Source: Amphiscolops sp. MND2022
Taxonomy: Eukaryota
DNA length: 64,000 bases
Assembly (NCBI GenBank): GCA_964187785.1
Contig: OZ076409.1
Coordinates: 49,726,001-49,790,000 of the forward strand
Direction of reading: 5' to 3'
Part shown: one piece after another, positions 25,101 to 61,790 of the stretch
How the letters are laid out: each line of letters begins with the position of its first letter
How positions within the stretch are numbered: the stretch's first letter is position 1
Translations under genes and position numbers: made by a program
Notes under the pieces: generated by a model
Seen by the model: only the letters and a program-made list of their open reading frames with translations
What the model was told of the DNA's origin: nothing
Database searches by the model: none

Positions 25101-26900
25101 GATGAGAAAACACTTTGGGAACAAAAAGACAATATTAGAAATCAAGCACAAACAGAAACACAGCGAACCGGAAAACGAAATAACCGAATTACAAAATTTT
25201 CATAAACCAATTGCCGGAACAATAGATTATCGGGAAGGACACTTTCGAGACAACGCAAAAATCCGATCCGAACAAAATATTGACCCAGTCCTTCGTAATC
25301 TCAGAGCAAAAATAGAAGGTGAGCCTTTCGATGAGTCAGCGTTCACACAATACAATCGCTACTAACATTACCTACAAAACATACCCCGCATCGAGATCCG
25401 CCAAGACATTCTTGCACGAAAATACTACAATGATATTGGACAAATCTCGCACTACCAAATACTCTTACCAAAACAGCTTCTTGAAGAGTTCCTACAGGCA
25501 TCGCATGGACACAATGCAAATCACCCAGGAATAACAAAAATGATACAAGAAGCGGGACAGAAACACTAATACCCATGCTTAGCAAAGCACATCAACAATT
25601 GGTTACAAAATTGCCAAATGTGCATTCAAAACAAAAGAATCAATATTGATTTACTGGGAACAGAATTTCCTAATTGCCCAGAAGATGTACATTAAATGGA
25701 CATCTTACCTAGTCTCCTATCAAGTGGAGGTTTTGATAACATTATAAAAGCAATTGATGTCTTCTCAAAATATTTATTTGCTTACCCAACAAACTGAATC
25801 ACAGCGCCTACAGTCGCAAGAGCCAGTATGGACATTTTGTGCAAACACATATATTTACCAACGTTCATAATAACTGACATGGGCACTCAATTCAACTCAC
25901 AAATCACTCCAGAAGTAGCAGCAGTGCTTGGAATTGAACTAAAACATGCTTCGACAAAACATGCACAAACAATCGTTATGCTAGAACGCACTCATGCTAC
26001 AGTAAAAACACATTTGAAAGCAGCTACAGGTGAATTTCGCAATATTTGGCATAAATTCCTACCACACTGGCTGTCTTAAACCACAGCACAACGTATCATG
26101 CCAGCTTAGGATGTGAACCCAACCGTGTTTTCCACGGCAGGATACCACCACCAGCAAACCAAAAAGAATACCATGCAGTCATATTTAAAGTATAAAGCAT
26201 ACAATGACCGCAAGGCAAAAGCAGCACCACTTACTACAACAGACTATTGCTACACACTGAACCCGAAGGCAGACACACAAGCAACAAAAATTCCGTTCCG
26301 AGAATTCCGTTGGATAGGTCCCTACGAAGTCGAAAAAGTCCTACCTAACAATAACTACATTGTACGAAGTCTGAGGACAAACAAAACACAACTGTTACAC
26401 CGAATGCGTTTCAGAAAATTTAGACCAAGTGCACCATTTGCAGATAATTTTGTCAGAGAAACAGATTGGCAAAAAGATGACAACATAATGGTAACACACG
26501 ATTATCTGTATGCCCACATATGGGATACAAAATTTTGGTACATATCCATTTGATACAGAACTCTCAGATAACGAACAAGATGACACACAAGAATATGTAC
26601 CGATAAACCAACCACCTCCCTCGAAATTTCAAAAAACAGTGGGGGAGCCCCGGTAGAACAAACTACCGTTCCTAATGAAGAAACGCCAACAGAGAATGCA
26701 GAAAATGAAATTGATGCAATTGATAATCAACAAGACATACAACCTAACCCTACTATTGATGCAGAAAAATCCTCCGGAAATACAGATGAAAACCAAGAAA
26801 ATGATGAAGTTCAAAAAAAACTAACCACAAATACACGTGGTGAAAAATACAAATTACGACCTAACTCAATTCGTAACTTTTCAGACTCATATAGATACTG
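22190..26900 (+). pseudogene. Gypsy pol (PR, RT, RNase H, integrase), disrupted
   Basis: LIDTGA; ASPIF...LVDLRKIN, KLDCSQA, NVDDI; VMSDA, YAKEFLAI; HPG...CQMC, ITDMG, LERTH; WIGPY. Confidence 0.93.
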
Positions 26901-27054
26901 AAAACAAAAGCATAACTGAAACTCAACTCGCTGCTTCCTAATGCGCCCCATGAAAACAAATAAAAACAACAAAATCTATGAGGCAAAAACAGAAATTGCC
27001 TGAAGAAAATATACAAATTTTCAGTATAGTTTAATAAAAACGACAAAGAATAAA

Positions 27055-30000: not shown

Positions 30001-33000
30001 TTTAAGATGGGATACTTGTGGTACATCCACCCTGCTAAGACGTAACGTGGCTTTGCTCGTTTTCGTGGTTGGAATTCTTTGTCCCCTTTTAGTTGCCGTT
30101 TGATGGGTTTTTCTCGTGATAACGGCACGTCATCTCCTGAAGAAAGATCAGAATCTGAATTAGTATCAGTAACAGACTCACTGGGTTGAAAATCAGCCTG
30201 ATCATCAGCAGTCGACTGATTGGGAGATGGTGTTTCGATAGTAGTACGTTCAGTTGATTTTGGACTAGGCGTCATTTGGACTTAAGAGCTAATCAGAGGG
30301 GAGTGAAATGGCTTCCGTTCGACCTTCTCTGTAGCTTCCTCCACTGCCTCTGATAGTCAAGATCCAAGTGGAGATACTTGTCCCAATCAGAAATATCGCC
30401 CGAGGAGGCAGGTAAAATCGCGAGTAACTGAGTATAGATAAAGACACAGAACTGGTTGAAGAGACGAAAGCCCCATGCTACAGTAGTATGAACTTCTCGG
30501 ATCGTGGAATTGTCTGAAACAAGAAGAGGATAATGAGGAAAGAACACAAACGATACCATCAGGAAAACAAAACAAGATGCTAACACTGGCTCAGAACATT
30601 TCGAGTTATGAAGAGTCGCGCTACAAAGACCCGGTCTTTGATCAAAATGTCATCCATCCCAACTGGCTGAAAAAGAAAACAAAAATTCAAAACCAGAACA
30701 TACAAGGAAATACGAGTTGAGGAAAACCAAGACCTTGCAATAACATTGGTGCGATAGAACACAAATCGAGAATATCTGAGTACTTATAAATAGATGAAAT
30801 GATGAAAACAAGAAACCGAGAAGAATACGAACATCTTGCATGTGGGATCGGTAGGCGGGGATCCGTTGGCTGTTCTTCAAATGTAAGACGACTTTATCCC
30901 AATTGCTGATTAAGTGATCAAGAAGTTCAACAGCTTGAAGAAGATCATAGTCAAAGTTCGTGATGAGCTAAAACAACACAACCATTGACAAACCACGAAC
31001 ATCTCTCACAAAAAGTCGAGCTAACACGTGTCTGAAAACGACGTAACAAACATTTTAGCAAATGATTTTTGCACGTGTACTCACCAACAAAACGTGATAC
31101 TACTCCATTATGATTCACTCGATGACTTGATATGTTACATAACAATGAGTCAGAACCTATCTTGAAGAGGAAGGATGAACTGAAGAAGTCATTTATGCCG
31201 CATTAGGCTGAGATTTTTCTGCAGTATATTGTACACTTTAACTTTAATGCAAAAACAAAAAAAGAAGATTACAACAGAGGAATCCGTAAAAACGAAAAAA
31301 TAAAGAAAAATGATCCCAAACAAAACATGAAGAACCAAACAGAAGATTCGATCCATGATACTACAGTCTAGAAAATTTCAAAAACCTGAACCCAAAATGA
31401 ACTTGAAAAACAATGTGACAATGAAATGCAAAGGAAAATCTGAACTATTACCTTCTGGAACTCTGGTAGAGCAGACAGCCAAATACTCCCTCAAGCGGAC
31501 CTCAGTCGCATAAGCAGGAAATCTAACACACTACGAAAGTCAAAGCGATCGAGAACTTGCACGGACGGGATGAAGAGAATTCGTTCCAAATCTTCGGGGT
31601 CAAATTTTGGCGTCAAACAATTCTTTTTGCGATGTCGTGAAGCACGCGAAATAGTCCAGGCAAAGTGTTGCGTAAACCCACTCAAAAATAATAAGTGAAC
31701 ATCATTGTTGATCAAGGAGAAACATGTGCGTCAACAGAGCGTGGAACAAAGTAGGGTTGAATACCATGAAGATACGTTGCAAAGGAGATAGAAAAGGAAA
31801 AGGTGTAACTTACGAAAGCTCGAAAAGATCGCCAATCATGCTGAGCAATCGGTTCGATAGTCTTAGTCTCTCTCACGAGGTCGTCCCACAGGGCGATTAT
31901 TGTGTCGAGGTGCCCGCCGTGAGCCAATCCAAAACTTAGTAGATTCATCTGTGAGAGAATCTCTTTGTCAGGCACGTCTGCCGGGGTTCTGTCCGTTGAA
32001 TCGAGTTGTCCAACACGAAGATAAGAGTCCCCTAACTTAGGAGCGACGGGTATTCCTTTCTGGTCCGCTCCTTGGCATATTTCAGTGCCATTCCAGTGAT
32101 CTCATCACAATTTTTGTCATAAAGGGGAAGCCCTGGGGTTTCCATCCGGATGCGGTGCTCCTTAACAATGTGCGCGTCTGTCCTATAATGATGCAGAATC
32201 TCGATGGGGCCCTTTGTCATTAGTGAAAGTTCCACTAAACAGACTCGGCAACGGTATTTGTATGGGTATCTGGCAGCGTCGGCGAGTGCAGTGACGAAAA
32301 ACTTTAAGATGGGATACTTGTGGTACATCCACCCTGCTAAGACGTAACGTGGCTTTGCTCGTTTTCGTGGTTGGAATTCTTTGTCCCCTTTTAGTTGCCG
32401 TTTGATGGGTTTTTCTCGTGATAACGGCACGTCATCTCCTGAAGAAAGATCAGAATCTGAATTAGTATCAGTAACAGACTCACTGGGTTGAAAATCAGCC
32501 TGATCATCAGCAGTCGACTGATTGGGAGATGGTGTTTCGATAGTAGTACGTTCAGTTGATTTTGGACTAGGCGTCATTTGGACTTAAGAGCTAATCAGAG
32601 GGGAGTGAAATGGCTTCCGTTCGACCTTCTCTGTAGCTTCCTCCACTGCCTCTGATAGAAGTTTTTCTAACCTTGTTTCCCGTGTAATTCCTGAGTCAAT
32701 GTTCGCGGTATCAGGGCTAGCAGTGGTAGGCGAAACCGCCTTGTCTCCAGCTTCCTGTGACGAACTTCCGTCCTTCTTCGGGGTGAGCTTATGGATGAAC
32801 TGTGTGAACGGGAATCCCAATACTCCAGAACTTTGTGATTTAGTAACTGTCCGGGAGGAAATTTTCTCAACCTTATCAGGGACATTTTTTTTACCGAGAG
32901 AGACTTAGAAGTACCAGGAAGAACACCTTCGATCGGGCTGTTCACAGCAGGGGTTACGGCAGTTGGAGGCGTTATAACCTTCTTTGCTTCGGCAGTAGGG

Positions 33001-44339: not shown

Positions 44340-44647
44340 GTTCGATTTACTAAGTTCGAATTTGTACTAGTGCAATAAGTTCGAATGGAAGAGTTTCGAG
44401 ACACCAAGTTCGAAATTTCATTTCGGGTATATCCGGTGTGCATACACCGGGTATGCCCCACATTTCAGTTTTTAGGTTCTTTTAGATCCTAGGCGGTGGA
44501 GCTCTCAGTTTCTCGTGTGAATGATGTCCAGTTTACACCGGATATGCCCGATACGAAAATTCGAACTTGATGTCTCGAAACTATTCCATTCGAACTTATT
44601 GCACTAGTTCAAATTCGAACTTAGTAATCGAACTTATTGCCCGAAGC
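44326..44647. mobile_element. Foldback MITE with AAGTTCGA-rich long TIRs
   Basis: GCTTCGGGCAtTAAGTTCGAT...ATCGAACTTATTGCCCGAAGC, with ~100-bp inverted arms. Confidence 0.8.
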
Positions 44648-46427
44648 CAACTGGACATCCTTCACACAAGAACCTGAGAGCCCACCGGCTATGATCTAAA
44701 GGAATCTAAAAACTGAAATGTGGGGCATATCCCATTACAGTGCCAAAAGTGGGTTAACACACTTTTGTGCTATTAAGTCACCGAAATCCACTGACATACT
44801 TTTAAACATGTATTTCACTGATTTTCATTGGATTCCGCTGTTGCCTGTTTTGGATTCCACTACCATATCTAGCTAATGTACAAAAATGTGTGCACCGAAA
44901 TCCACTGCTTTTCACTGCCAACTGATTGAACCAATCGCGTCAGCTTATTTCAACTTTCAGCGAAATTCGCTGAAACTTGCAGTGGATTCCACTCCAGCTT
45001 ACAGTGGATTCCACTTTTCAACTTGTGGAATTGACTGCAAAATGAGTGGAATTGACTGTAAGCCAAAGTTGAATTCACTGTAAGCTGAAGTGGAATCCAC
45101 TGCAAGTTTCAGCGAAAGGAGAGATCAATGAAACCTTAATAATAAAATCTTTCTAATAATCTTCTTTCATTTTTTCATGCTGAAACAAACCTTTTGGCCC
45201 TTTAGTTTTGCCCCCCACACCTGTTTTAACAATTGATAATTTATTGAAAACAATTTATTTATTATAAACAATTGATATTTATTATTATTAATTTATTATT
45301 ATTTTATTATGCAGGAACGGCGAAAAAATTTCGACTCAGCGAAATGTTCGATAAAACGAAAACATGCTAATATGACCTTTACTGTCGGGGATTTTTATTC
45401 GTTTACCCGAAATTTTGATTTCGATATTTAGCCAATGTTCGATTATCGGAATCCTACTGTAAACAACATCTTGAAAAGTGTAGGGAAAAGGAAAAAGTTC
45501 CAGACTTTTTATTTTTGTTTGTTTCAGGTCAAATTCATACAAATTCTGTGAAGCAATCGGCGAATGGTGGGAACTTCAAAATCACTCTTTATGGTTGCAA
45601 TGTTTACAACTTCAATGGTTACAACTCACACCTGATGCGTTCCTCTCTTCTCTATTATTATAAAGTTCTCTCCTTATTACAAAAGTTTTGTTAAAAGTTT
45701 TGTTTACGTCTTTCTTTTTGTCATGATAATATGTAGTTTCTTCAATTGAAAAAATTTTCTTACCATTTTTTGCCAAGTACTTGTAGTGCTTGAACTGTGT
45801 TCACGGTCAACTCACGGTCGAATAACAACAGAATCAGTTGCTGGCAAATCCTCTATACAATGTCAACCGACTCACGGTTGATAAACAACTCACGGTGGAG
45901 AACAAAAAAAATCAGTGAAAAATTAGTGAAAAATACGGTTGTAGGCCCCAGGATAGAAAAAAAGGACTCCGTAAAAATAATGATATTTTATGGACGTAAA
46001 GCAATTTTCCCTAATACTTCACAAAAATATGTGTTCCCTAACTTTAAATTACATGACTACTGGAAATGCTAGTAAACTTTCGCCAAGAAAAATCCTTCCA
46101 CATGATTTTTTGGGAACAATCACACCTTATTTTATCACCTACTAGTGAGCGCACGTATGACCTTGTAGTTTTAGTTCAACGCGTGCAATCAAATAGTTTC
46201 AAACAGGTGTTGAAGTATTATTTAAACAGCGTGCTGTAATACTGTGAGAAAAATGTTGCAAGATTAAATTTATTTGAAGTTGAGGCTAAAATTGAGGCGC
46301 AGAAGACGCAAAAGGAGGGAAACTGAAACGCAAAGAATATGATTCTGATAGTTTTTCGGCTTCATCATTATCGACGATTTGATACACCATTGACACGCTC
46401 AATTTCCAAAAGCTCATTGACACGCCA

Positions 46428-49400
46428 TTGACACACTCATTGTCTAAAAGTTCAGAAATGTCAGAATTCGAAAAGTTCAATATATCACTCGATGATGGGA
46501 AAGAATTCATAGATTCCAAAATACTAGACTTTATATCAGGAAACACGTTACAAAATCGTGGACGGAAACTCACTTCAATTGTTGCTGAAATGGTCGTAGG
46601 GACCACTCTGAAGACAGACGATCCTATTCGAAAATTACCAATTAAAGGACAGCCCCAGGGATCTGTTTTTGTTGCGTCGAAAATAATGAAACTTTTAATG
46701 CGGGGCTATAAAGACTTACCTAGGAACGAGAAGAGAAGAAAATTCGTTGCAAAATATTTCAACACCAGTTTTTTTCCCGATGTCGGTACTTTTACAAATG
46801 ATAAAATTTTTTCTCAACATGAGATGGTTGAAGAAACACCCCTTGAAGTAACATTCCAAGAAGAGAGAGTGCTACAAAAGACACCAAAAATTAATAATTC
46901 ACAAGACCAGCAACGATCAGATATGAATATTACGCAATTACAACCCAAAAGGTGGCACAGAACTAATAAGAAAACTTTTTGGACCAAAGTCCTGAATTTT
47001 GCTAGAATGCATGGTATACCTATTCACGGATTAGCCACAATTCTCAAAGAACAGCATCAGAAACGTAGCATATGGCGAAAAAGAAGCGCAAGCGGTAATC
47101 ACATTCGAGACTTGTTCACGGGTCTTTTGGAGGACAGAGGCTCCTCCGAATGCTCCAGGTACGAACTTTAAATCAAAATGAAAACTGGCAACATGGAAGA
47201 TATCCTCAATGCAATTCGACAAAGGCTAGTTTCTGTTGGTTTAGGTGCTGTCAGCCTAGTACCGTCAATTCGTCACATGAAAAGAGCTACTAGCCTCATA
47301 ATGAAATTGTTTGTTACAATTTGCGAGCCTCAGCGAACCTATTCTGGATTTCGAGTCAGTTTACTGAAAGCAGTGACGTTTGCGTCATTAGTTTTACTGC
47401 AAAAAACCAATCTTGAAGGCCTTAAAATTGATATTTGGGGTGACGGTTGCGAAATAGGGGGGATTGAGGTAACGCGTCTAGCATTCAGAATTTTGAACAC
47501 CACAGTTAGCAGTCAATCAACGAAAGCTGTCTTCTGTTTTGCATCATATCGTGGCAAAGATGGCCGATATGCAATGGAACAAAACTTTGGCCCGTCTATC
47601 TTGGGTAAGCAAGAATCTGGATGGCTATACCGCCAGACAAAAGAACTACAAGCCTTGGGCGTTGAAATTACATACAGTGGTCACAGCCCGTTCTTGACGC
47701 GTTTGGTCCTTGGAATTTCAACTGAACGTTCAAGTTCTCATCCGTCACAACTTCCGATATATGTATGCGATGAAAATTTCCTGCCCACCCGCTGCTCAGA
47801 TGTTGATGGAAGACGAACATCTTTGAAGATCCCATTCAGACAACATGTTCCTAGAGAAGTATTAGCAAGTATAATCGATGTCAGAACAATCTGCCCAGAC
47901 GCTACACACATGATAACGCGTTGCACTGAGAATGATATTAGAAGAGTGGCTCAGAAGGTAATTAGCGACAAACATCCCTGGGAAGTTTTGAGCATACAGC
48001 GCTTTGAGAAAAATTTGACCAGCCGAGAAGCTAAAAGACCGTCTTTTCAGTTCAATATCACCCACAAGAACGTAGGTAAAACCCCAGGAACAGTAGGACC
48101 ACTGTCATTAGCAGGGTCGAATGCGCTTACAGTTATAGCTGAAACAGAAGAACTTAGAAGAGCTCAATTTGGGACAATCACGAACCTTTATGACGGAGTT
48201 TGGACGACCGAGTTACTACTTGGAAGTGAGGATGGATACAACTTGGGGGCTGCAAAAGTACTTAAGTCTTTACATCCACATTTATTTGACAAACGGGACC
48301 CCATAAATCCAAGAAACGAAGAAAGATATATATCAATTTATGACGCTTGTGAGCTTCTACGACAAAGTTCAAACCAGTGTGCTATTCTGTTGAGAACTCA
48401 GGGAACATTTGATGTCGACACTTGCAAACGATGGGCCGAAACAAACTTTCAAATCAATTTGCTCCTCTTCGGGCGAAAGGGGCTGTCACCATACAAGCTG
48501 TCACCAAACGATGGGCTGAAACAAACTTTCAAATCAATTTGCTCCTCTTCGGGCGAAAGGGGCTGTCACCATACAAGCTCAAGCTTCCATTGATAACCAA
48601 ACTAGTGGAGAGCGGACACATCGAGAAGCCATGGAATCACCTCTGCGAAGGCTTGGAAAAATCGAACCACAATGCGAAAAGAAATTTTCAATCCCGAACC
48701 ATGAGAGGCGGTGGCTCCATTTACCATCAAGATCCATTATTTCTGGATACTGCATTTTCGTTTTGCCGGTTCCTGGATATTTCTTCAACAAGTTCCGAAA
48801 AGAAAATATCCAATGTCATTGAACATGTAATAAAAACACTCAGGACTGAAGCGACTTTAGAGGCTGCCAAAACTTATCTAGACATTTGTAGAACTCCCTT
48901 GGCGCTACCCCGCCTTGCCGTTGGCGAAAAGAGAGAATTTTGCGACTTTCTAGGAGGATTGAGATTTACAATTGTAAGTAGGTTCAAGCGTGGGCTCACA
49001 CAGGATTTCCTCAAAGATAGAATTTCCGAAATGGGAGGTGTCGTTTATGAGAAAGAAAACGCGGAGAACATAATGAAATCCCATTCAAATATCTTGGATT
49101 TTTACGTTATTGTCAAAGACGAAGAGGACCTAATAAACGCGACCGGCGATAAACATCAATTGGAAGCCATGAGAAGAAAACTGAAGCTCCATAGACATTG
49201 TACCGCAAGCGAGTTGTCAACAGACGCCGGAAGCAGAGAAGATGAAAAGTGTTCAACAAAAAAGAAGTTGTCTCCTGCAGCTTTGGCCTGCAAAAGATTT
49301 GCGTCGGGGGGTTTCATGTTCATCACTGTTGAATACGTACTCGAAATGATGAAAAGTAACGTCATTCTGGACCATGAAAATTATATTATAAGGCCTGGAC

Positions 49401-49549
49401 TCTTGATCAACCCGATGAAAATTAATGACATGCGACGACTCTTGATGGATCAAATAGATGATAACAAATCAATAGCGAATACGTCAGCCATTGTGGCCTT
49501 GAAAAGATACCGAAACAACCTAGTGAAACAACAAAACTCCAGCAGATGA
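46428..49549 (+). pseudogene. DDE transposase (CMC/Transib/RAG1-like fold) with C-terminal BRCT-like domain; disrupted
   Basis: IWGDG...FRIL...SQS...YRGKD; SG(H)SPFL; PDATHMITR; SPY...EGLEKSNH...TMRGGG; LGGLRFTI...LKDRISEMGG...ITVEYV. In-frame stop at 47169 and an 80-bp insertion frameshift at ~48500. Confidence 0.75.
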
Positions 49550-49710
49550 TCAACTTTTACTCTGATTTCTGCAAATGCTTGTTACAATAAATGATTTCGA
49601 AGACATATGTTTTAATCTTTGCTTGTGGTACTAATTTAGCTTTTGAACATTTTTTTCTCGGAAACTTAGACAAGAAATTTTAAACATTTCAAAAGGGGTA
49701 CATTTTAACG

Positions 49711-50465
49711 AATTCAAAAGGGGTACATTCAGTAAAGCATTAGTTCTAAATAGACTTTATTGCAGTGGATTCCACTATTCTGGAAAGTGTTCTTAATCCT
49801 GCGAAAAGCGAAATGCGGAATTGACTAACATATACCATTACATTGACAGTGAATTCCACAAACAAATGCTTAAACATTTGCAAACCAATTCAAAAGGAGT
49901 ACATTCAGTAAAACATTAGTTCTAAATAGACACAAATTTATATTGCAGTGGATTCCACTATTCTGGAAAGTATTCTTAATCCTGCGAAAAGCGAAATGCG
50001 GAATTGACTAACATATACCAATACCTTGACAGTGAATTCCACAAACAAATGCTTAAACATTTGCAAACCAATTCAAAAGGAGTACATTCAGTAAAACATT
50101 AGTTCTAAATAGACACAAATTTATATTGCAGTGGATTCCACTATTCTGGAAAGTATTCTTAATCCTGCGAAAAGCGAAATGCGGAATTGACTAACATATA
50201 CCAATACCTTGACAGTGAATTCCACAAACAAATGCTTAAACATTTGCAAACCAATTCAAAAGGAGTACATTCAGTGAATTATTAGTTCTAAATAGACTCA
50301 AGTTTCTATTGCAGTGGATTCCACTATTCTGGAAAGTCTTCTTCATCCTGCGAAAAGCGACATGCGGAATTGACTAACATATACCAATACATTGACAGTG
50401 GATTCCACAAACAAATGCTTAAACATTTGCAAACTAGTTCAAAAGGGGTACATTCAGTGAATTAG
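49711..50465 (+). repeat. 183-bp tandem array (~4 units)
   Basis: GCGAAAAGCG recurs at 49801, 49984, 50167 and 50350. Confidence 0.95.
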
Positions 50466-51369
50466 TAGTATATCCAGCAAAAAAAATCAAATCAGGCTAT
50501 ATTAAATAAAATTGACAATTAACTCCCTCATAGTCGTGACGAAAGAAATCTTGAACAAAGTTAATGATCAAAATCAACATACCGTATATTCCGGCAAAGA
50601 AGCCCCCTCCCCCTTTTTTTGAGTTTTTGGTGGTCAAAAGTTTGGGGAGGGGCTTATACGATGAACATAAAACGAAGACCGTTTTTTTCGGAATCAAAAA
50701 TTTGGCATGATTTTAGAGGATGTTGCAGTTGACTTCTTTTTGAGGAAGTTTCTGAGCCCGAAGAAAGGACAGATGATGACTCCACTTTTAGTCCGTGAGA
50801 ATTGAAAATTGATTTTATACCAAGAAAGTTCATTCAATTGACACTTATTGAACTTTTATTTTCTTTTATTTTTCTAAAGTGCATTTCCAAAAATTTTGGT
50901 AGGTTAAAACTTGAGTCATTTTGTATTCTAGAAGGAGTTTGCTCTCTTTCCATTTTTCATTTCGCTTCAATATTTTGTTTACCATTCATTTGTTCAACAC
51001 TATTCGTTCACTCAGCACAATTGGAATGAATCTGACGAAAGTGTCAATTAAGTAAACTTGTGTGCAAATGTAGTGGTATAAAACAAAACTGTTACATAAG
51101 TTTACGGAACCGAGAATGCTAATTCGATTTTGATTGGCTGCCGAAGTGGATATAGGAAATGTTCTTCTAGTTCAGGAAATTGATTCTTTGCCGTTCGACC
51201 TTTCAATTCAACAGCTTGCTAGTTTTGTTTAATTCAAGATACATTCTTTAAGATTTCTCTTACCTTTGTCTAATTCTAGATTCCCTAAACTTTGCCTGCT
51301 TCCTCATTCCACAATGGTTAGTTTCTTTCTTAAGAATGTTTTACATCTACAATTTGGGATACGAAGTAA

Positions 51370-51830
51370 AAATTTCAGTTTCAGTTGGAAAAAACTGAGT
51401 ATCCACTGTGAGTATAAAAAAACTGTTTTTATACACACCGCTTTGGTTTTGGTACTTACCGTGAGTAAGTTATTGTACTCGTTTTTGGTATCCACCGTGA
51501 GTAAAGTATTATCCTGCATTTGTATAAAAATTTTTTGTATCCACCATGAGAAGTGGAAAATCTTTAGTTAGAAAAAAAATTGTACACACTGTCAGCAAAA
51601 ATGTTAGTTTCAGTTGGAAAAATTCGAGTATCCACCGTGAGTAAAAATAATTCAGTTTTAAGAAACACCGCTTTGGTTTTGGTACTTACCGTGAGTAAAT
51701 TATTGTACTCGTTTTTGGTACACACGGTGAGTAAAGTATTGTCCTGCATTTGTATAGAAATTTTTTGTATCCGTGAGTAGTGGAAAAATCTGAGTTAGAA
51801 AAAAAATTGTACACACTGTCAGCAAAACTG
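51370..51830. repeat. ~230-bp tandem repeat x2 built of ACCGTGAGTA motifs
   Basis: TCAGTTGGAAAAA at 51381/51610 and ACACCGCTTTGG at 51435/51665. Confidence 0.85.
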
Positions 51831-51979
51831 CTCTTGAATTTTCATACGAAATTTTTGGTTTCTCCCGAGTAGTAAAAACAAATCTGAGTTTGAACTGCCA
51901 TCCTTTGAACAGGCCTGAGTGAAAGACTGTTCACAATTTGCAGAGAAATCTGGAAGTAAAATATTGTTATCGAATTCGT

Positions 51980-52230
51980 GGGTCTTTTCTGCTACAACCC
52001 CTCCCTCCCAGCAAGTTTACTCCCATCGCACTCAATTCACTAAGAAGTGAATCAATATAAAGTCAATCTTATACAACAATTCTTGTCCTAATTTTTGAAA
52101 TGATGATAGGTGTTCATCATTAAGAAGTGAATCATTAAATAGTGAGTCAAATACCTCGATTCTTATCCTGACAAAAAAATATTGGGGATAATTTTTAAAG
52201 AATAGAGTGGGGGAATAACAGAAAAGACCC
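51980..52230. mobile_element. MITE, same family as 6076-6292
   Basis: GGGTCTTTTCTG...CAGAAAAGACCC. Flanks GAATTCGT/GAATTCGA (7/8 TSD). Confidence 0.75.
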
Positions 52231-52494
52231 GAATTCGATCTCTATCTCGTTTTAGGGGAAAGCAATCCAATACCCATGTCAAAGACTAATTCTTTTTGAT
52301 ACTCAACTGTTGTCAGATGAAATCAGAAAGCAATGATACGATATGAAGAAAAGATTAAAAGTTGTTGTTAACATAGACAATCAAAAAAAATTTCGCGATA
52401 GCAAGATCAAAGTTTTTACATATTATTTGAAAAATTAGGTATACTCAGTTTTTCTGAGATAACATAGGCTGTAAAAAGTCGACTGTAAAAAGCC

Positions 52495-52565
52495 GACACG
52501 ATAGAGATTCGAACCCACGATCTTTGGCTTCATAGTCTAGTTGCTTACCACTCGGCCATAGCGCG
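52495..52565 (-). ncRNA. tRNA-like Pol III sequence (pseudogene or SINE head)
   Basis: A box TGGCCGAGTGG and B box GGTTCGAATC. Acceptor and anticodon stems pair poorly. Confidence 0.55.
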
Positions 52566-52828
52566 TTGTTATTTGTTTGTTTTTATTTAACCATATTGTT
52601 AAACAACCGAGATACTTATCTCCATTTTAAAATGATGGCGTTCTAAATTCATTTGTGGTTTGGCATGTTCTGTTTTTTTTTGCTTGTTCGTTTCCTCTTT
52701 TTTCTGATTGGGAAAACAGGTCTTTATTTGAAATGGCAGGTTGTAATATCTTTTAGCGGTTTGAAATTTTGGCGTTTACATGCGAGACGCTTCGAGGATA
52801 AACTATAATGTTGTTTTTGTTTCTACAG

Positions 52829-55341
52829 ACTGAATACAGCTGCCCCAACTGTTCGTACAAGTCGAACCGCCGCACGATTTTTGAGAGGCACCAAAAAACC
52901 TGCGGTACAAAGCAGCCGCAAAACAAAGCCTGTCCCCGTTGCAAGAGGGTTTTCGCCACCCTTGTAACGTTCAAGCGGCACATCGAGAAACCGAGGTACT
53001 GCACGACAGACATACCCCAAAATGAAAGAAAGTACAGTAAGTAGATCAACTATGTCAACGATTTGCGGCTCTTTTCGTTCCCCCCACCACATTTTTCATG
53101 AAAAAATAGTGAAAAACTTATATCACAAAGACGTGAATACAAACCAGAAAGCCTCAAATTTATATTTATTCTTAGTGTGACAGTTTAGGATTTAGATACA
53201 AATAAATACGAACATAATACTAACATAATACGAACATAAGTATAGTCTGCAAGTTTTATATATTCGTCTGCTTTCGTAAAGTACCTAGAGGACATGCCGC
53301 TATCAGAGGAGCCGTGGAACTGCTGCAGGTGGGAAAATCAGCAAGAAGACGAAAACGGCATGGTCCTGAAAGCACTCTCTCGTGGCCAGCCGATATTGTG
53401 GAAGAACGGGGCTACGAACTCGCGAGGTTTGAAGCTCCCAGTTTTGCCCGCTGAGGACTTCGTCCACCAAGTGGAGTTCTTGCTGCAGCACTTGGCCAAT
53501 CCTGCAGCGAAGCTTGCTGCAAAGTCATCACGGCTACCACAAGACCAACAGGTGAACATATCCCGCCATTCTTTGTTTTTTTTTTCGATTTTCACAAACT
53601 TCATTCAAGTATAGCGTTTTACCATTAGTGATAAAATTTATTGTATACGTTGAATCAAAACATATTGAGATTTAGTATCCACTAAGTCATCGTTGGCAGT
53701 GGATTTCACTGTAAGTTATCTAAACATTGGTAAAGTAATTTCAAAGGAGTATGCTTGAAATATATTTTTTTGAATTTTAGGTCAGGTCTTTAACAATGAG
53801 AGAGTACCTGGACGAGCAGCGAGCGGGGCCCTCAGCAGCACCCACGGGAACATTTCCTGTCAATGTCAATGACATTGCACTCGAACGGAATGTAAGTTTT
53901 TTTATCATATCTTGGAAGGTCTCATATTGGAAAAAATTGCTCTTTGAATTTGGTGTCTTTACAGTGCCAAAAGTCAGTGAAATACATGATGCACACTTCT
54001 ATTGTTCAAATTTTTAGCAACTAAATGGATGTTAAAATTGGCGACCACTGTAAGGAGTCTTTGTTCTGAAACCGTTTGCTGAGGTCTTGTCGTTTTGGTT
54101 TAGTTTTTCCAAGTACCGGATTTCGTCAGACACTGTGCGGCCGATCATCTGGCAGATGAGTGTGTGGATGCAGCAGGGCACTTCACCGAGGCTACATCCA
54201 ATTATTTGCTGGTCTCAAACGACCAGTGTCTCACGCCGTGGCATGTCGACTTCTCCAGCACGACTGCCTTTTATACTGTCGCCCGAGGACAGAAGATCTT
54301 CAGGCTGGTGGAGCCGACAAGCTCAAATTTGCAGCTCTTTGAGGAGTGGAGCAATATCCCCACAAAAAGGTAAATGTACTCAGATCATGTACTGAAAACA
54401 TACTCATCTCAAAATCATCATTTTGCGAAGAGCACTTTATCAATCATGCACATGATTCAAAATCATTGAACCAGTTGTTTCGTTTAAATGTATACTAATT
54501 TGTTTTTATTTAGACCAACTTCATTCGGGAACCTGAAGGCCCTGACAGGTTGGGTCCACAAACTTGTGGTGGAAGCAGGCGACATCCTCGTTTTGCCTGC
54601 ACGCTGGCCACAAATAGTGGCAACAAAGGGAGACGCCATTGCTTTTGCCTCCAACTTCCTCGCTGTCACACATTTCCCTCTGATTGTGGACAGTCACCTC
54701 AACGCCAGTCAGCAGGAAATAGACGACGAAGAGGTTTTTCCCGGAGTTGTTCGTGTCTATGCTGTGCTACAGTTTAAAACACGACAACTCCAGCGAAAAC
54801 TCAATTCCCTGAGAGGATCATGGAGCCCCCTCTTCTCCAGCCCACAACTGACTCTTCTGAAAGAGCAGATCAGCAGTGAGCTCGACGCCATCAAAATGGT
54901 AATCAATGTTTGTTAATTATGAATGGTAACTGATAATGTAGAAAATGTTGATAATGGAGAGAAGAACTAATCTGTTTCACGGACTGGGTTGTGAACTACG
55001 GATTTTAATGGTTCTCGTTTCGAACTGCCTAACAATTTAAACTTTTTTTCAAATGTAATTGTAATTTTGACACATTTCTCATTGAATTCGCTCTATTCAT
55101 CATTGTCAATGGCTTTTGTTACCAGGTGTATCCAGCTTTCAATTTGAATCAACTGGGATTGAGGGGTCCGGAGAAGCCCTATTGCGACCCAAAAGGGCCA
55201 GTGTACGCCTTCACAGGGACTGTGAAGGAAGTCCGAATTGGGCCTACACACCAGGCCGAAATCCCCGAAATGTCACAGAAGGGAAGGAAACGTGACCGCA
55301 GCATCCTTCAAAAGGAGGAGGACGTCTTCGATATAGGTTAG
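52829..55341 (+). CDS. Spliced C2H2 zinc finger + JmjC (KDM2/KDM7-like) + ELM2-like protein, ~480 aa; first exon not located
   Basis: Exons 52829-53036, 53289-53551, 53781-53891, 54104-54369, 54514-54898 and 55126-55341 join through GT-AG introns into 1449 nt with no internal stop. CPNC..H..C and CPRC..H; TPWHVDFSST...GQKIF; GDILVLPARW...SNFL; VRIGPTHQAEIPE. AATAAA at 55616. Confidence 0.85.
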
Positions 55342-55709
55342 AAGCAGCAATTGTTGATGTCATAATTTTCGAAATCTTGATGTTAAACCTTACATAGATA
55401 TTTGACCACTAGTCTATCGGAAAACCTTGAAATTGTATCTGTTGAAAAAAAATCACAAACCCCATCGTTAAGATCTGTTTAGACACCCTGCCGCCTCTCA
55501 TTGCAAGCTGCGACACTTTCAAAGAGTTTTTGAGCAAGAAAATTGCTCTCTACAGCCTGGACTTTGCAACAAGCCTACATTGCAAAAGACGCCTCGAGAA
55601 AAATTCACTATGGTGAATAAAGAAGCTGCCTGGTGCAAATTTTTATAGTTTATTGTTTTTTTATTAAATTTTTTAGTTTAGAATTGAACAGAATTTAGTT
55701 TAGAATTTA

Positions 55710-56160
55710 CTCCTTTATATTGGTTTGCAAATGTTCGAGCATTTGTTTGTAGAACTCACTATTAATGTATTGAAATACGTCTGTCGATTCCGCATACCGC
55801 TTTTCGCAGGATGAAGAATACTTACCAGAATAGTGGAATCCACTGCAATAGAAATTTGAGTCTATTTAGAACTAATATATCACTGATTATACCCCTTTTG
55901 AATTGGTTTGCGAATGTTCAAGCATTTGTTTGTGGAATCCACTGTCAATGTCTTGGTATATGTTAGTCAATTCCGCATATCGCTTTTCGCAGGATGAAGA
56001 ATACTTTCCAGAATAGTGGAATCCACTGCAATATTATTTTGTGTCTATTTAGAACTAATGCTTTACTGAATGTACCCCTTTTGTATTGGTTTGCAAATGT
56101 TTAGGCATTTGTTTGTGGAATCCACTGTCAATGTATTGGTATACGTTAGTCAAATCCACT
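55710..56160 (-). repeat. Inverted copy of the 183-bp array (~2.5 units)
   Basis: TTTTCGCAGGATGAAG at 55801 and 55984 is the reverse complement of the 49.7-50.5 kb unit. Confidence 0.93.
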
Positions 56161-56527
56161 TACTAGTTCTGGCTAGATGCATTTAGGTTTAGTAGAACGT
56201 TTGTACCAAAAATCTGAATGTGCAAAAACCAAAGTAACAAAGCATTATTACGTATCGGGAACAGTTCTGAATAATAATTTGTAATTATCTACTGGGGAGA
56301 ATTTTTCAAGAAAGTAGTCGCAAGTGAAAAAAGTTTTTTGACATCATTTATTGTAACAAGGACAATATAACTGAAACAATCGATTAAGAAAAAGAATTTT
56401 ATCAGTGCAATACCAACAAAAATACCATTGAATTTATTTAGGGTAACAAAACAGACGCTTTTTGAAGATGTATTTGCACATTTACTCACGGTGGATATCA
56501 AAATTGCTACCCGTATTGGGCAACAAA

Positions 56528-57792
56528 TTATTCAATGTGCGCATGTTGAATGTTTTGCCTGAAGCTTTTCGATGGACTCCATTTTTTGTAGTGGCCTTCA
56601 GTTGTAGTTATGTGGCACCTGAGTGAGAACATCATAAAGTTGCGATGTTCCGTGAATTTCAAAGTCTTGATCAATGTTGCAGGCTCATCTTCAAGCGTAT
56701 CTGGAATGATGCCCCAGTTCTGGCCCAATATAAAATCTAAGCTGTTGTAGCTTCCCAAGTTTCCCGTTTCAACTTCTATTGAAAATTTCTCATGTTCTCT
56801 GCTTGACTCCGACTTGAACCCACAGACACGTTTTGTCAGCTCTGTTGCAGGTATCATGTTTGTCACAGTTGATGACTTCTTGAACGACAAACCAACACAT
56901 CTCTTAATTGCAGAAAAGACTGCAAACGTTCTATCAACATCATTATCAGGGTGAAAAAATTGATTTCCACGTTTTTTAAATAGTCCGAGATCTTTAACGA
57001 ACAATTGTTTACTGGCATCCTAAGTTCGCAGTCTTCGTCGTCCATGTATACCATTATTGCAAATGGTTTCAACTTCTGTGCACTGTAGTACAAATCCTCC
57101 ACTTTGAATTCCATTCCAGACAAAGTAATAATGGATCCTCTTTGACTAATTCCATTGACACATGGTACATAGCTTAATTTGACATCAACATCGGTTTGCG
57201 GTATCAATGCTGAAAAGTCTATTTCTGGTATTTGTGTTTTAGGTCTTTTCTGTTTTGGTTCTTCCCGATGTTCCTGCCTCGTCTCTTCAGCTTCCTCGTC
57301 GTCTTATGCTTTCTCATCGTGAACATGGATATCTTCCACTGAGTTCTTCAAATAGCAATAGGGGATAAATCTAAACAATTTGTCAATCTCCACGACACGC
57401 TCATGGGTAAATGGGTCATTCGTCGAAATAGTTCCCGTTTTGATTTTTCCATGGGAATCAATGAAACAATGCCCCACACACTCACAATCGGGTAGCCAGA
57501 ATGTCACAGGCTCGTTTTTTTGCAGTCGGTTTGGGGTATACGACAGGGGTTTAGAACGCTTTTATGACATGACTGGTTCCGAATGTTGTGCTTTTCTAAT
57601 GTTCCACCTGTTTGGGTCAGGACGCAATTCTAGGGGAATTTCAATTTTCTGCAGACGATTGTTCCAGTCGATCCATTGGATTTTCAGAGACCAATCACTT
57701 ATGAACGCTATTATCTTCGCAGACTCCCAAATATAGGTTTCAGGGTCGAGGATTTGGACAATTTCATTTAATTTAAAAGTTTGCAGAAGCAT
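56528..57792 (-). pseudogene. ~420-aa cargo gene with N-terminal Tudor/chromo-barrel-like domain; two stops and one frameshift
   Basis: ORFs 57562-57819, 57304-57507 and 56863-57207 share a frame, then shift to 56528-57004. FKLNEIVQILD...WESAKI...LKIQWIDWN. Confidence 0.55.
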
Positions 57793-58279
57793 TGTAGTGG
57801 AGATTAAAGTTGACTTCAACAGAAAGAAATACTTGAGCTTACTCTGAGCATAAACTGTTCAAATTTGTGTAAAGTGATTACCAGGTGTCAACACATAAAC
57901 TGCGCGAAAAAGAGGCTAATTTTACGGTGATGATCCTAAAAGAAGGTGTCATTCCATTTTGAGCGCTCAATAAAAGAAATTATTACTAGCAATTAGTTTT
58001 TAAACTCATCTCGTGAGTGTTAATATAATTGAATAGGCATTTGAGTCCCGAAAGGACTCAACCACCGTAATAAACCTGATAACACTTACTGGTTGAAATT
58101 ATTAATTTAGTCACTGTGAAGTGCAAGGGTGAAATCGAGTCTCTGCTAATTACGAAAACGACGCTTTATCGAAAAAAATTAATTACAAAATTGTCATTTC
58201 TTTTTACATCATAATTTTGATTCATTCAGCGAAATCCACTGTCAGGATTTGTTCTCCTAGTTTCATAAATACTTCAAAC

Positions 58280-60196
58280 ATGCCTGACAAAATTTCAAAT
58301 CTAGAATCGACACGCTTGTGTCCATCCCAGACTTCTACACCTGTGCAACAGTCACATCGACGATCTACCGACTGGAATGTGCCGCCAGATTTCCTCAGTA
58401 ATGCATCCATGTTTTGTCCGCCATCTTATTCGCCAATTCCATCGGCCCCCGAGGAGGGTTTCTTCAGTGCAACTAGAATGATGAACTCTGATGGGATCGA
58501 GCACTTGATTGAACATACGCCCCCAGAAGCTCTAGAACATTTACTGCAGAATGCTCACAATCTGACTCAAACTCCTTTGCCGCCTGAGAACCCACTACAA
58601 CAGGACCGCCCGTCACAGAATTCACTGCCTCACCAGAACTTGCCACCCCAGAGCAATGTGCCCGGGACCAATGTGCCACCCCAGCTCAATGAGCCACCCG
58701 GGAAGCGTCCATTTGACTCCCAGTGCAGTGAGGATAATTTAAGTAACAGCCAATCCAAATGTGCGAAAGTTACTGACTTTGACAACAACATGTACGAAAG
58801 AACGTTGGCTAAACACGTGCAGGCATCGAAAGAAAATGTGGGACTAGTACAAAAAGGTAAGTTGGAACTCTTTCGATGCATAATTACAACCCTGTTCATG
58901 TATGCGGTACCACCTATGCTTGAAAGTTCCATCCGGAATGTCCCGGTACACTCAGTTGTGCAAATCGTGATGGATCACGAAGAAGATTCACTGAGCGACG
59001 CCTTCAATCTCTGTGTGGAACACACAATTGGATCATCGGAACGAACAATTCACAAAGTCTCCGGAAGTCTTGTGGAAGCATTGAAAGTATATTTTACACA
59101 AATTCGGCCATTTTTTTACCAATCACACCAAGTTAGCCATTGTTCGATACGAAAAGGCCGACCAACGTCCAATTAATACAGAGTTATTCTTTGTGAATTC
59201 AATTGGTAAAACAGACTTCCGCGTTAAATCTGTTGTAGATCTTTTCATTTCAAGCAAAAAAGCAGAAACAAAAGATCAATATACATTGAAAGGTAAAGTC
59301 GCGGAACTGATGCCCCTTTCCAATGACCCATGTTTAAAATCACCAAGCTGAAACATGCAGTGAATTTGGTTTTTTCGAATGTTGAAGGTTTCGACAAAGA
59401 CGATGTGAGAAACGCTGTTCGCGCCCGCCAAGACCAGCAAAGGTACACTCGCCAGTCAGCCAGGGGCTTGCTATACTTTGAACACGTTTCTGGAAAAGTT
59501 GCTATTAACTGTCTTGAGTAAAGAGTGGCGGCATTTTTTCAGCGACAAAAGTGGACTTCGCTGGAGAATAAGAACCAGGACGTGAAAAAAGTGACAGCAC
59601 AGTTATTGGTTCTCTCTAACAACCAGTCAATTAGAAAATCTTCGCAGGTACCTGAGAGCAGTGGAATTCGGTATGCTGGACTTGCTCATAATTTGCCATA
59701 TGAAGAACAAATTTTGTTGTCGCAACGATGTGAGACGCAGCTGTGGCCTGGAATCTGTTTAGCCAAAATGTCACAATTTGGGAGATATGTGATTGCCACA
59801 CAGAAATTTTCAAAGGACGACATTTTGATGGATTACCATGGCGAGGTGTATTTGAACATGTCATTGAGCCAAGTCCTCGAGAAAGAAGGTGTGGAGCAAG
59901 AGTTCGTTCTGGAGGTTAAAAGTGGCGCCTCTAGAAGAATCATTGATGCCTCCAAAGAGATTTGCCCCCTTCACCCAAATATTCGCTGCCCTGGACGTCT
60001 TGCCAACCACTCGCAGTTGAAATCAAACGGCGCCAACATGAAGCCCACAGTGATCGAATTGTTTCAAAATGGTAAAAAGATTGTAGTGTTCCGAGCTACA
60101 CGTGATATTCTACTATTTGAGCAGCTCCGTTTTGATTACAATGACCCCATTGCCAATCAACTTTTCCAGGAAGATTCTCAACCTATGTTTGACTGA
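58280..60196 (+). pseudogene. Cargo gene: Pro/Gln-rich N-terminus, possible degenerate tyrosine-recombinase fold, C-terminal PR-Set7/SETD8-like SET domain
   Basis: SET motifs GRYVIAT..F...D....YHGE, IIDAS, GRLANHS and ATRDI..FEQLRFDY. ORFs 59330-59521 and 59525-60196 are in one frame, split by TAA. A probable intron lies at ~59132-59238. Confidence 0.75.
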
Positions 60197-60937
60197 TGGA
60201 ATCGTCAGAAAACTCCGTTTACAAAACACTTTTCTTTGTTGTGTATTCAATTTTTCACTACTTTCGTTTTAATTTCACTTGTATGTAAACACTGATTGCT
60301 ACAAGTACATTTGTTTGTTTTTCGTAATATCGAAACAAAACACCGTGAATTACATTTTCCCTTGCAACGTCTTCTTCACTCGAATTTAGATTTCCATTCA
60401 TCATTCGGCTTGTAATTCAATTTGAAATTTTGGTATCCGCCTTGAGGTATTTGAAAAATGGAAACTAGTTGTACCTAAAATACACTAAAATACACAAAAG
60501 AGCTGTGTGTGAAATTTGATGTAGAATTGATAAGGTCTCCGTTGCAGTCAGCAGTATGCTTGAAGTGAGTTTTCCGGAACCAAATTTTGGTATCCACCAT
60601 GAGGTAAATGAAAAATGAAAGCTAGTTATACCTAAAGATATGTGTGTATAACTAGGTAACTAGCAGGAACTGTGTGTGAAATTTTGATGCCCACTATGAT
60701 TCAATCAAAGTATGAAAAAATAACAGTCAAACTAAAGCGGTAAAACGGTGCTTGATTGCGGTAAAAACTCACTGGGAATGATTTGTCAAATGAAGAAATT
60801 CTGAGTCCTTCTTTTCGTGACACTTGCTGATTCTGAAAAAGTTTCTCATTTTCAAAACTGAACTCGTGAAGGAAGGGCACTGAAGTACATGAACTCCACT
60901 TTTTTTCGATGGTTGATAGTTTTTGTGAGTTGGTATT

Positions 60938-61030
60938 GAAATAATTCAGCGAAATAATTAGGTGAAATAATTAGGTGAAATAATTCAGTGAAATAATTCA
61001 GTGAAATAATTCAGTGAAATAATTCAGTGA
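60938..61030. repeat. 13-bp minisatellite (GAAATAATTCAGT) x7 in the right subterminal region
   Basis: Directly visible. Confidence 0.95.
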
Positions 61031-61790
61031 ATTCCACTAAACGCTGCAGTGGAAATAATTAGGTGAAATAATTCAGTGAATTCCACTAAAACACTGCAGT
61101 GGAGTCCACTGCAGCTGATAGTGGATTCCACTGCGGCTATCGGTGGAGTACATTGCGGCCATCGGTGGAGTCCACTGCAGCGTTCAGTGGAATCCATGGC
61201 AGTGTTTTGTGGGATCCACTGCAAGATCCGAATGTTTGAGGTATTTGATAGTGGAATCCAATGCTTTGCAGCGAAATTCGCTGCAGAAAAATCGCCAAAA
61301 GAGTGGAATCGACTGCAACCTAATAGCATTTGTTAGTGGATTACGCTGCACGCTTTCCAAAACTGCCGTCCAGCGAAATCCACTGCAAATATTCAAAATA
61401 CCCACTTTTGGCACTGTAATGCCGGTGTATGCACGGTCGCCTCACCATCGCAAAGACCAGCTCCTACTACGATCGAATCAATTTGTTTTCAAAAACAATG
61501 TTTTTGGCCCTCGGCTTTTCCCCCATTTCCGATGGATCCACGCCACCCCTTGGAGCCGCTTATGTTCACAGTTTGCTAAGCGAGGTCGAATGGGAGCAAA
61601 GACCTAGCGGGAACGGAGATCGCGAAGCGATCTTAGTGGGAGCTGGTCTGTAACGGTGAGGGCGAGCGTGGATACACCGGGAGTGTACGCCTTTGATATA
61701 ATTGCTTGGGTCTAATGGAATTAGATCTAACTGTTAGGTCTAACTTTCAGATCTAGTTTTATCTAAAATACTTAGGTCTAACCCTTTTAT

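Follow-up and report, generated by a model that had tools for sequence, protein, structure and literature searches.

Transposons are usually viewed as the targets of chromatin silencing, and in the parts of the literature drawn on here the elements known to fight back do so with a TET/JBP DNA demethylase in fungi and with the non-enzymatic protein VANC in plants. Fungal DNA transposons of several groups (KDZ, Plavaka, hAT7, PHISTA and others) carry a TET/JBP dioxygenase, as described in sections of PMC12730594, while the VANC protein of Arabidopsis VANDAL elements is an anti-silencing factor whose targets are tandem repeats that differ between related elements (excerpts of Hosaka et al. 2017, PMC5735166). 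A SET domain has also been found associated with a DNA transposase, in SETMAR/Metnase, which is a primate host gene fusion with a mariner transposase and not a mobile SET-carrying element (PMC2847698, in extract). Among DNA transposons at large, the CACTA/EnSpm-Mirage-Chapaev-Transib (CMCT) group comprises EnSpm/CACTA, Mirage, Chapaev, Transib and others, and is characterised in the same sections of PMC12730594 by CA...TG termini, a target-site duplication (TSD) of 2-5 bp, Cys/His motifs and an HHpred similarity to RAG1. Here we analyse a 64,000-nucleotide stretch of the genome of Amphiscolops sp. MND2022 (assembly GCA_964187785.1, contig OZ076409.1, positions 49,726,001 to 49,790,000; hereafter the window), which holds a large DNA transposon that carries, beside its transposase gene, a SET-type gene, a JmjC-type gene with C2H2 zinc fingers and a gene for a predicted beta-barrel protein that we call P2.

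This chromatin-enzyme gene set in a transposon that we place in the CMCT group is previously undescribed, and it is conserved between families of related elements. In the open-access literature, a scope outside which Repbase and Dfam lie, we found no account of a DNA transposon of animals that carries both SET and JmjC genes; an earlier note on this DNA, made from the letters of the window, likewise knew of no animal element with this combination. The likeness to the fungal TET/JBP elements lies in a putative silencing-mark eraser encoded beside the transposase and in a cargo kept across related families, whereas the fungal enzyme, in the sections of PMC12730594 used here, is a DNA-demethylating dioxygenase and the cargo described here combines a histone-type demethylase-like protein, a methyltransferase-like protein and a barrel protein. 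With VANC the element would share an element-encoded factor proposed to act against silencing of its own family, together with tandem motifs that differ between families, present here as arrays of a 14-mer; VANC, however, is not an enzyme of these classes; its action, as far as the excerpts of PMC5735166 go, is on DNA methylation, and VANDAL is a Mutator-type element of plants. No homology is expected.

The ends of the element were used for a search of the 1.07-Gb assembly, with the first and last 200 bp of the window element as queries. The left-end query gave at least 267 first-look candidates and the right-end query at least 304, and for each query all 40 candidates that were scored were 98-100% identical. 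Eight left/right pairs among the matches listed lie on one contig and strand, 15.2-17.4 kb apart; all eight were taken as full-length copies (A to H), which together with the window copy make up the nine full-length copies of what we call family 1. One more pair, 46 kb apart, was left out of this set. The flanking 2 bp are identical on both sides in nine of nine copies (CC, CA, AT, AA, AC, AA, TT, AC and CG), and the termini read CATTAC[A/T]GTG in all nine, with 5'-CA...TG-3' as the outer bases and a T at position 7 of the terminal inverted repeat (TIR) in seven. Furthermore, colinearity with the window copy extends over the full length of all eight others, cargo included, at about 94-97% identity, and the end loci that were examined include five short, internally deleted derivatives (590-1474 bp), four of them with matching 2-bp flanks. 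Because the ends recur at 98-100% identity between varied but matching 2-bp flanks, the TIR and the 2-bp TSD are real and not chance features. Family 1 is a cut-and-paste DNA transposon of 15-17 kb that has many copies and has been active recently. Copies or ends of this family also lie in clusters, from a few kb to 150 kb apart (C9:45419987-45423637, C7:7453917-7469951 and C10:35386254-35538522), which suggests local hopping or nested insertions.

The earlier note had proposed a single TIR-bounded transposon with a 2-bp TSD, and the perfect 22-bp TIR and the matching flanks of the nine copies bear this out; its four coding regions also lie where it had placed them (Table 1). It had further allowed that the three cargo genes might be single-copy host genes, or might never occur together within TIRs elsewhere. 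Instead they co-occur inside the TIRs of all eight other full-length copies, and the set is found again in two more families. The genome holds at least 50 SET loci, and within family 1 a P2 locus lies within 6 kb of 45 of 50, which rules out single-copy host genes.

A search with P2 returned many intact open reading frames (ORFs) of 434-450 amino acids at about 41% identity, and these led to family 2. At least 17 other copies of the family-2 element are 97-99% identical to it, and 10 other copies end at the exact same right end. Families 1 and 2 have the outer 12 TIR bases in common and almost no similarity at the DNA level. A sub-branch, family 2b, has intact transposase ORFs of 1037 amino acids. 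Family 3 has intact transposase ORFs of 1175 amino acids (for example C13:32867875-32885800, with about 20 similar loci); in one stretch of it (32874900-32883700) the SET gene lies between P2 and the transposase, and 17 of 22 transposase loci, as counted by hand from the coordinates, have a JmjC exon at a distance of 15-18 kb. The family-3 SET gene seems to have an intron, and in the left part of the family-2 element there is a palindrome whose arms are each about 300 bp long and whose centre is near C12:28165042.

The four genes are arranged differently in the three families: transposase (+), JmjC (+), P2 (-), SET (+) in family 1; JmjC (+), transposase (-), P2 (-), SET (+) in family 2; and JmjC (+), P2 (-), SET (+), transposase (+) in family 3, so that the divergent P2/SET pair is constant. 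Transposase identity is 61% between families 2 and 3, 44% between 1 and 2 and 39% between 1 and 3. The corresponding values for SET are 57, 35 and 36% (41% between families 1 and 2 over the domain). For JmjC exon 4 they are 65% between families 2 and 3 and 42% between 1 and 2; across the JmjC exons, families 1 and 2 are 23-42% identical, and their P2 proteins 40%. Families 2 and 3 are thus closer to each other than to family 1, and the divergence of the cargo tracks that of the transposase. Since four genes are kept in three families whose proteins are about 36-61% identical and whose gene order is rearranged, the set, judging by these comparisons, goes back to an ancestral element that the families have in common, and selection has preserved the genes as components of the transposon. 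Many further JmjC-exon families share 68-71% identity with family 2, and the 1378 candidates genome-wide include dozens of intact exon ORFs of 132-137 amino acids, which points to a large radiation of such elements in this genome.

Next, we compared the copies of family 1 with each other. The earlier note had called for the ratio of non-synonymous to synonymous substitution rates (dN/dS) between copies, which we ran as the corresponding ratio of observed differences (pN/pS) among the nine copies. The ratio is 0.47 for SET, 0.67 for the transposase, 0.81 for P2 and 0.33-1.08 for the JmjC exons; most values fall below 1, but the test is too weak to decide on selection. Most of the differences probably arose after insertion, and mild ratios are then expected. 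By this measure, the cargo of family 1 looks no less constrained than its transposase.

For the transposase, a word-index search gave 26 homologues, and a profile search of 1.84 billion proteins retrieved 505 representatives with E values of 0.001 or lower. The alignment conserves the motifs DIWGDG, TYSGDSPF, CPDATHMxTRC and HxCEGLEKSNH, which can be read as two aspartates, a Cys/His cluster and the glutamate of a putative DDE enzyme. No Pfam family matched the family-1 transposase at E 0.1 or better; 15 aligned relatives gave BRCT-type and chance-level hits only, and 21 further relatives BRCT-type hits and one at chance level. Against solved structures, the single protein found no match by sequence and the profile found one at chance level (E 0.004). 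We therefore turn to the AlphaFold model, built from a 15-sequence alignment, whose mean predicted local distance difference test score (pLDDT) of 57 gives it modest to low confidence. The model has the strand-strand-strand-helix-strand core of a DDE enzyme. With Foldseek, all ranks down to 47 are RAG1, Transib or the amphioxus RAG-like protein BbRAGL (E 3e-6 to 3e-3), and Hermes comes after them. With VIA-align, HzTransib is the best match (Z 12.7, 357 residues aligned, root-mean-square deviation 6.3), followed by 30 RAG1/RAGL and three more Transib entries (Z 8.9-11.2), with the P element (Z 7.0), ISCth4 (5.7) and Hermes (4.5-4.8) lower. The neighbours of the transposase in a protein language model also include RAG1_RNase_H clusters. 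Collectively, these results put the predicted fold nearest to those of Transib and RAG1. The best structural matches (6pqn, 6xnx, 4wwx and 6b40) cover model residues 261-774, although sequence identity to them is just 8-14%.

Because the predicted fold of its transposase is closest to Transib/RAG1, we place the element in the CMCT group. It agrees with the group, as sections of PMC12730594 present it, in having termini of the form 5'-CA...TG-3', a TSD length that falls within 2-5 bp, a DDE transposase that resembles RAG1 in structure-based comparison, and a large size with accessory genes; the short subterminal repeats are a likeness to CACTA elements in particular. The region resembling BRCT at the C-terminus of the transposase and the lack of a match to any Pfam transposase family set it apart. 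Within the group the element is nearest to Mirage in the length of its TSD, 2 bp being a hallmark of Mirage. The term CACTA-like, used in the earlier note, thus holds in the broad CMCT sense and not in the strict one. Strict CACTA/EnSpm was rejected: the ends read CATTAC and not CACTA, the TSD is 2 bp and not 3, the fold is nearest to Transib/RAG1, and no match was found to the plant TnpD family of Pfam, which we take to be Transposase_21. One trait of CACTA elements is nevertheless present, in the form of multiple short subterminal repeats (clusters of the 14-mer at both ends and 22-bp tandem repeats). Transib and RAG have a TSD of 5 bp; membership of Transib was rejected on the 2-bp TSD and on finding no RAG1 Pfam domain at E 0.1 or better. 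ISL2EU and Harbinger, the alternatives with a 2-bp TSD, were rejected on the RAG1-like predicted fold and on finding no Pfam match of the DDE_Tnp_4 type.

The BRCT domain that follows the DDE core scores E 1.2e-7 in one relative, above the cut-off, and more weakly in six others; in the family-1 transposase and in the window ORF the signal is below the Pfam cut-off. In family 1, a run of A between the two parts sets the reading frame. With nine A the frame is kept (copies D, H and window), and eight or ten A shift it (copies A, B, F and G). The run could be a hot spot of homopolymer mutation or assembly error, or a slippage site that gives two protein forms.

Next we examined the three cargo genes. 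The window SET ORF matches the Pfam SET domain at E 7e-8 (59522-60196, 33.3 bits), and an intact copy scores 32.8 bits against a gathering cut-off of 22.4. The nearest solved sequences are the SET protein 4ldg (E 8e-8) and KMT5A/SETD8 (E 1.6e-5), and the catalytic motifs align with those of SETD8, GRLANHS with GRLINHS and EQLRFDY with EELLFDY. A KMT5A/SETD8 (PR-Set7)-like, putatively methyltransferase-like assignment is therefore supported. Similarly supported is a KDM2/KDM7/PHF8-like, putatively demethylase-like assignment of the JmjC gene, which has several exons and was compared exon by exon, not as a spliced protein. Matches of its exons to KDM2A and PHF8 reach E of about 1e-11, and the family-2 counterpart of the exon with the HVD motif matches PHF8 at E 5.5e-12. 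The metal-binding residues are present: HVD in family 1 and HRD in family 2 align to the HxD of KDM2A and PHF8, with the Y, the K and the second H aligned too, and the exon that carries the second His aligns LPARWPHIVAT with IPAGWIHAVLT of the C. elegans KDM7 homolog. The Pfam JmjC score is 15 and 19.9 bits per single exon against a cut-off of 24, with the domain split over exons. Intact copies have three C2H2 fingers over two exon ORFs of this gene, and the two-finger exon is kept in family 2 at 30% identity.

These results agree with the PR-Set7-like SET and KDM2/KDM7-like JmjC domains of the earlier note; its two other domain assignments fared less well. The ELM2 motif scores 23.0 and 23.2 bits, just above the Pfam cut-off of 21.7, but covers only positions 1-23 of 53, and a counterpart looked for in family 2 was not found. 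For the Tudor/chromo-barrel-like reader, what stands is a small SH3-like barrel in P2 (residues 224-295), the one confident part of a model with a pLDDT of 50 overall; an N-terminal barrel has a pLDDT below 50. The best matches of the confident barrel are the BAH domains of EBS (Z 7.9) and Rsc2 (7.2), PWWP2B (6.7) and a Tudor domain (6.3), all within the background range of the tool, and in that range the list also includes DNMT1 BAH1 bound to H4K20me3 and the BAH domain of ORC1. P2 has 10 homologues and a Pfam match at chance level only; its profile matched nothing in the PDB by sequence, and an Atlas search gave no usable match. A role of P2 as a DNA-binding protein like TnpA of CACTA elements is equally possible as that of a histone reader.

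The window copy itself is dead, with all four genes broken, which is a correction to the apparent toolkit of the earlier note. Its transposase has an in-frame stop at 47169-47171 and is frameshifted by an 80-bp duplication present only in this copy, the comparison being with the eight others. Its JmjC gene lost about 204 bp at 53262/53266 relative to seven of the eight other copies, and one C2H2 finger with them; its second metal-binding His reads Q, where copies G and D have H. The minus-strand P2 gene is split into four ORFs, and the SET gene has six stops when read in frame. Intact frames are found elsewhere. A single-exon SET ORF of 680 amino acids is present in three of the nine copies (C, D and G) and at no fewer than five loci among 65 candidates scored, and P2 is intact as an ORF of 449 amino acids in copy G and of 449-450 amino acids at many loci. 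The family-1 transposase forms an ORF of 778-780 amino acids in copies A and F and runs on into the C-terminal part in copies D and H.

We also found that a near-palindromic 14-mer, AGTGGAATCCACTG, has 45 matches in the window (up to two mismatches, both strands) against 0.38 expected. Nearly all of them fall in four places, the two subterminal regions and two internal arrays of a 183-bp unit, which bracket the JmjC gene. In family 2 the 14-mer was not found; the subterminal repeats of that family are different, though its outermost TIR bases are the same. As the subterminal motifs differ while the outer TIR bases agree, this suggests a possible family-specific recognition by an element protein combined with a common cleavage site.

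Taken together, these observations lead us to propose, at about even chances and with the structural claims included in that estimate, that the accessory proteins may act on the element's own chromatin and counteract its silencing. Under this hypothesis, a DNA-binding module encoded by the element would recognise the family-specific short motif in the subterminal regions and the two internal arrays; the binder could be the JmjC protein, through its C2H2 fingers, the barrel protein P2, or the transposase, through its N-terminus. Binding would bring the demethylase and the methyltransferase to the element's own chromatin, where they would remove repressive lysine methylation and set another mark, and the altered chromatin would allow the element to go on being transcribed and would leave its ends open to the transposase.

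Several observations weigh against this proposal. The similarity of the element enzymes to known ones (25-45%) is too low to read substrate specificity from it, and the P2 barrel also matches KOW and other SH3-like barrels, its fold matches being in the background range. No full-length intact family-1 transposase ORF was present among 66 scored candidates, the longest having 886 amino acids, and the sampled family-2 copy has a stop inside the SET domain. The pN/pS ratios of family 1 are just mildly below 1, which by itself is no sign of selection. Finally, the C(2)C and H(3-4)H spacings that sections of PMC12730594 give for the CMCT group are absent, and C-x4-H-x4-C and an H-x-C-E cluster are found in their place.

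Other roles for the cargo have to be weighed on the same evidence. That it is passive, Pack-type cargo, host fragments captured by chance and carried without function, might be argued from the window copy, in which all cargo genes are broken, and from the family-1 ratios of 0.81 for P2 and 1.08 for one JmjC exon. However, the genes persist as long ORFs, many of them intact and with the catalytic motifs kept, in three families that are rearranged and whose cargo co-diverges with the transposase, and the identities of about 36-61% exclude recent recombinants sharing one cargo block. We consider passive capture, which the earlier note had raised and which the four-gene set in three families contradicts, extremely improbable. 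Alternatively, the proteins could form a repair or replication module, in which the SET8-like and PHF8/KDM7-like proteins, P2 and the BRCT-like tail would act on chromatin around the double-strand breaks left by excision, possibly via H4K20 methylation, and steer repair or replication timing such that the donor is restored and the copy number rises. H4K20me1 is deposited by KMT5A and erased by PHF8, and the binding of 53BP1 and ORC1 is affected by it. The closest relatives of the two enzymes (KMT5A/SETD8 for SET; PHF8, KDM7 and KDM2A for JmjC), the BRCT domain after the DDE core in the relatives, and the presence of DNMT1 BAH1-H4K20me3 and the ORC1 BAH domain among the barrel matches would all fit such a module. 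Yet H4K20 is a candidate mark suggested by sequence likeness, the barrel matches are within background, the BRCT signal of family 1 is below the Pfam cut-off, and the internal motif arrays around the JmjC gene are left unexplained, so that we regard this role as unlikely, if worth keeping in view.

The accessory proteins may also read or write marks that steer integration to permissive or harmless regions, analogous to the PHD finger of RAG2 guiding RAG1, or to the chromodomains of chromoviruses. The RAG2 PHD finger reads H3K4me3 (trimethylated lysine 4 of histone H3), and a transposase with a RAG1/Transib-like predicted fold accompanied by a barrel of a kind common to histone readers would suit this role; but the TSDs and insertion sites of the nine copies are without obvious preference, and two enzymes would be superfluous for targeting, which makes it an improbable explanation in our view. 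Still less probable, we think, is that the substrates of the SET and JmjC proteins are not chromatin but the transposase, or further proteins of the element or the host, whose methylation, demethylation or hydroxylation would regulate transposase activity. KMT5A is also active on proteins other than histones, hydroxylases occur among the JmjC proteins, and the domain assignments alone leave the substrate unfixed; against this, the closest solved relatives are all histone-lysine enzymes, and the C2H2 fingers fused to JmjC suggest substrates that are bound to DNA.

Returning to the proposed action of the proteins on the element's own chromatin, a bolder version combines it with a role at break sites. 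Here a RAG1/Transib-like radiation, whose transposase also has a BRCT-like tail, would encode a writer and an eraser, and probably a reader, for a single state of histone-lysine methylation, with H4K20 as the candidate mark because of the SET8-like and PHF8-like enzymes, and would switch chromatin at the motif arrays and at break sites, controlling both escape from silencing and excision repair. We hold this version to be rather unlikely; if true, an animal transposon would for the first time be seen to encode a histone-modification system of its own, and RAG1 with its chromatin reader RAG2 would be a natural parallel. In any case, an abundant young lineage has kept methyltransferase-like, zinc-finger demethylase-like and barrel genes through a long divergence. 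Should the proteins act on their own chromatin, these elements would offer a testable system for transposon counter-defence at the level of histones, a source of compact, sequence-targeted chromatin enzymes, and a point of comparison for how RAG1-type transposases gain chromatin-reading partners.

Table 1. Features of the window copy and the family-2 reference element. Positions are those of the window unless they carry a prefix.
Feature	Position	Strand	Remarks
Whole transposon copy	44733-61421		16,689 bp; perfect 22-bp TIR and CC target-site duplication
Left TSD copy, CC	44731-44732		matching flank at right end
Left 22-bp TIR, CATTACAGTGCCAAAAGTGGGT	44733-44754	+	100% complementary to right TIR
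Left subterminal 14-mer cluster	44826-45116		includes 22-bp repeats
Transposase gene	46383-49549	+	three ORFs of 262, 473 and 378 amino acids in window; putative DDE core, then weak BRCT-like C-terminal region
Tandem duplication in transposase, 80 bp	48425-48579	+	1.9 copies, 98% matches; other copies align twice here
A-run between DDE core and BRCT-like part	48792-48811	+	A7 to A10 across copies
Internal tandem array	49707-50458	+	183-bp unit, 4.1 copies, 14-mer in each unit
JmjC gene, exon-bearing ORF with two C2H2 fingers	52802-53044	+	zf-C2H2 E 9.5e-6; copy G E 9.5e-9
JmjC gene, second exon-bearing ORF	53246-53614	+	truncated by the ~204-bp deletion that removes the third C2H2 finger; finger present in copy G
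JmjC gene, small exon-bearing ORF	53781-54017	+	exon boundaries approximate
JmjC gene, exon with HVD metal-binding motif	54104-54373	+	KDM2A E 4.7e-11, PHF8 E 3.3e-10; Cupin_8 signal
JmjC gene, exon with second metal-binding His	54488-54916	+	C. elegans KDM7 homolog E 1.6e-4
JmjC gene, last recognised exon-bearing ORF	55033-55341	+	marginal ELM2-like N-terminal motif
Second 183-bp array, inverted relative to first	55719-56157	-	444 nt, 90% complementary to first array
P2 gene, predicted beta-barrel protein of ~450 amino acids	56528-57858	-	broken in window; 449-amino-acid ORF in copy G
SET gene, single exon	58133-60196	+	divergent from P2; SET domain ~59780-60142
Right subterminal repeats	60937-61385		13-, 22- and 49-bp units carrying the 14-mer
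Right 22-bp TIR	61400-61421	-	exact reverse complement of CATTACAGTGCCAAAAGTGGGT
Right TSD copy, CC	61422-61423		same as left flank
Family-2 element	C12:28162013-28179822		17,811 bp; outer TIR bases CATTACAGTGCA...; CG duplication

Directly to the left of the element, nested inverted repeats occupy 44347-44732, with arms at 44449-44499/44682-44732 and at 44347-44439/44535-44627. They look like an element of the miniature inverted-repeat transposable element type whose right arm ends exactly at the insertion site, and since that arm stops there, the CC duplication lies inside it. The neighbourhood in the window is otherwise rich in repeats, and retrotransposon remnants are present in the form of an aspartyl-protease-like ORF (12190-12810, E 3.4e-4) and of a reverse transcriptase with RNase H (23596-24777, E 1.8e-15). 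Over about 12 kb of the window (20001-32000), a stretch that overlaps the reverse-transcriptase region, the AT skew is strong and sustained at +0.19 to +0.25 and the GC skew is negative.

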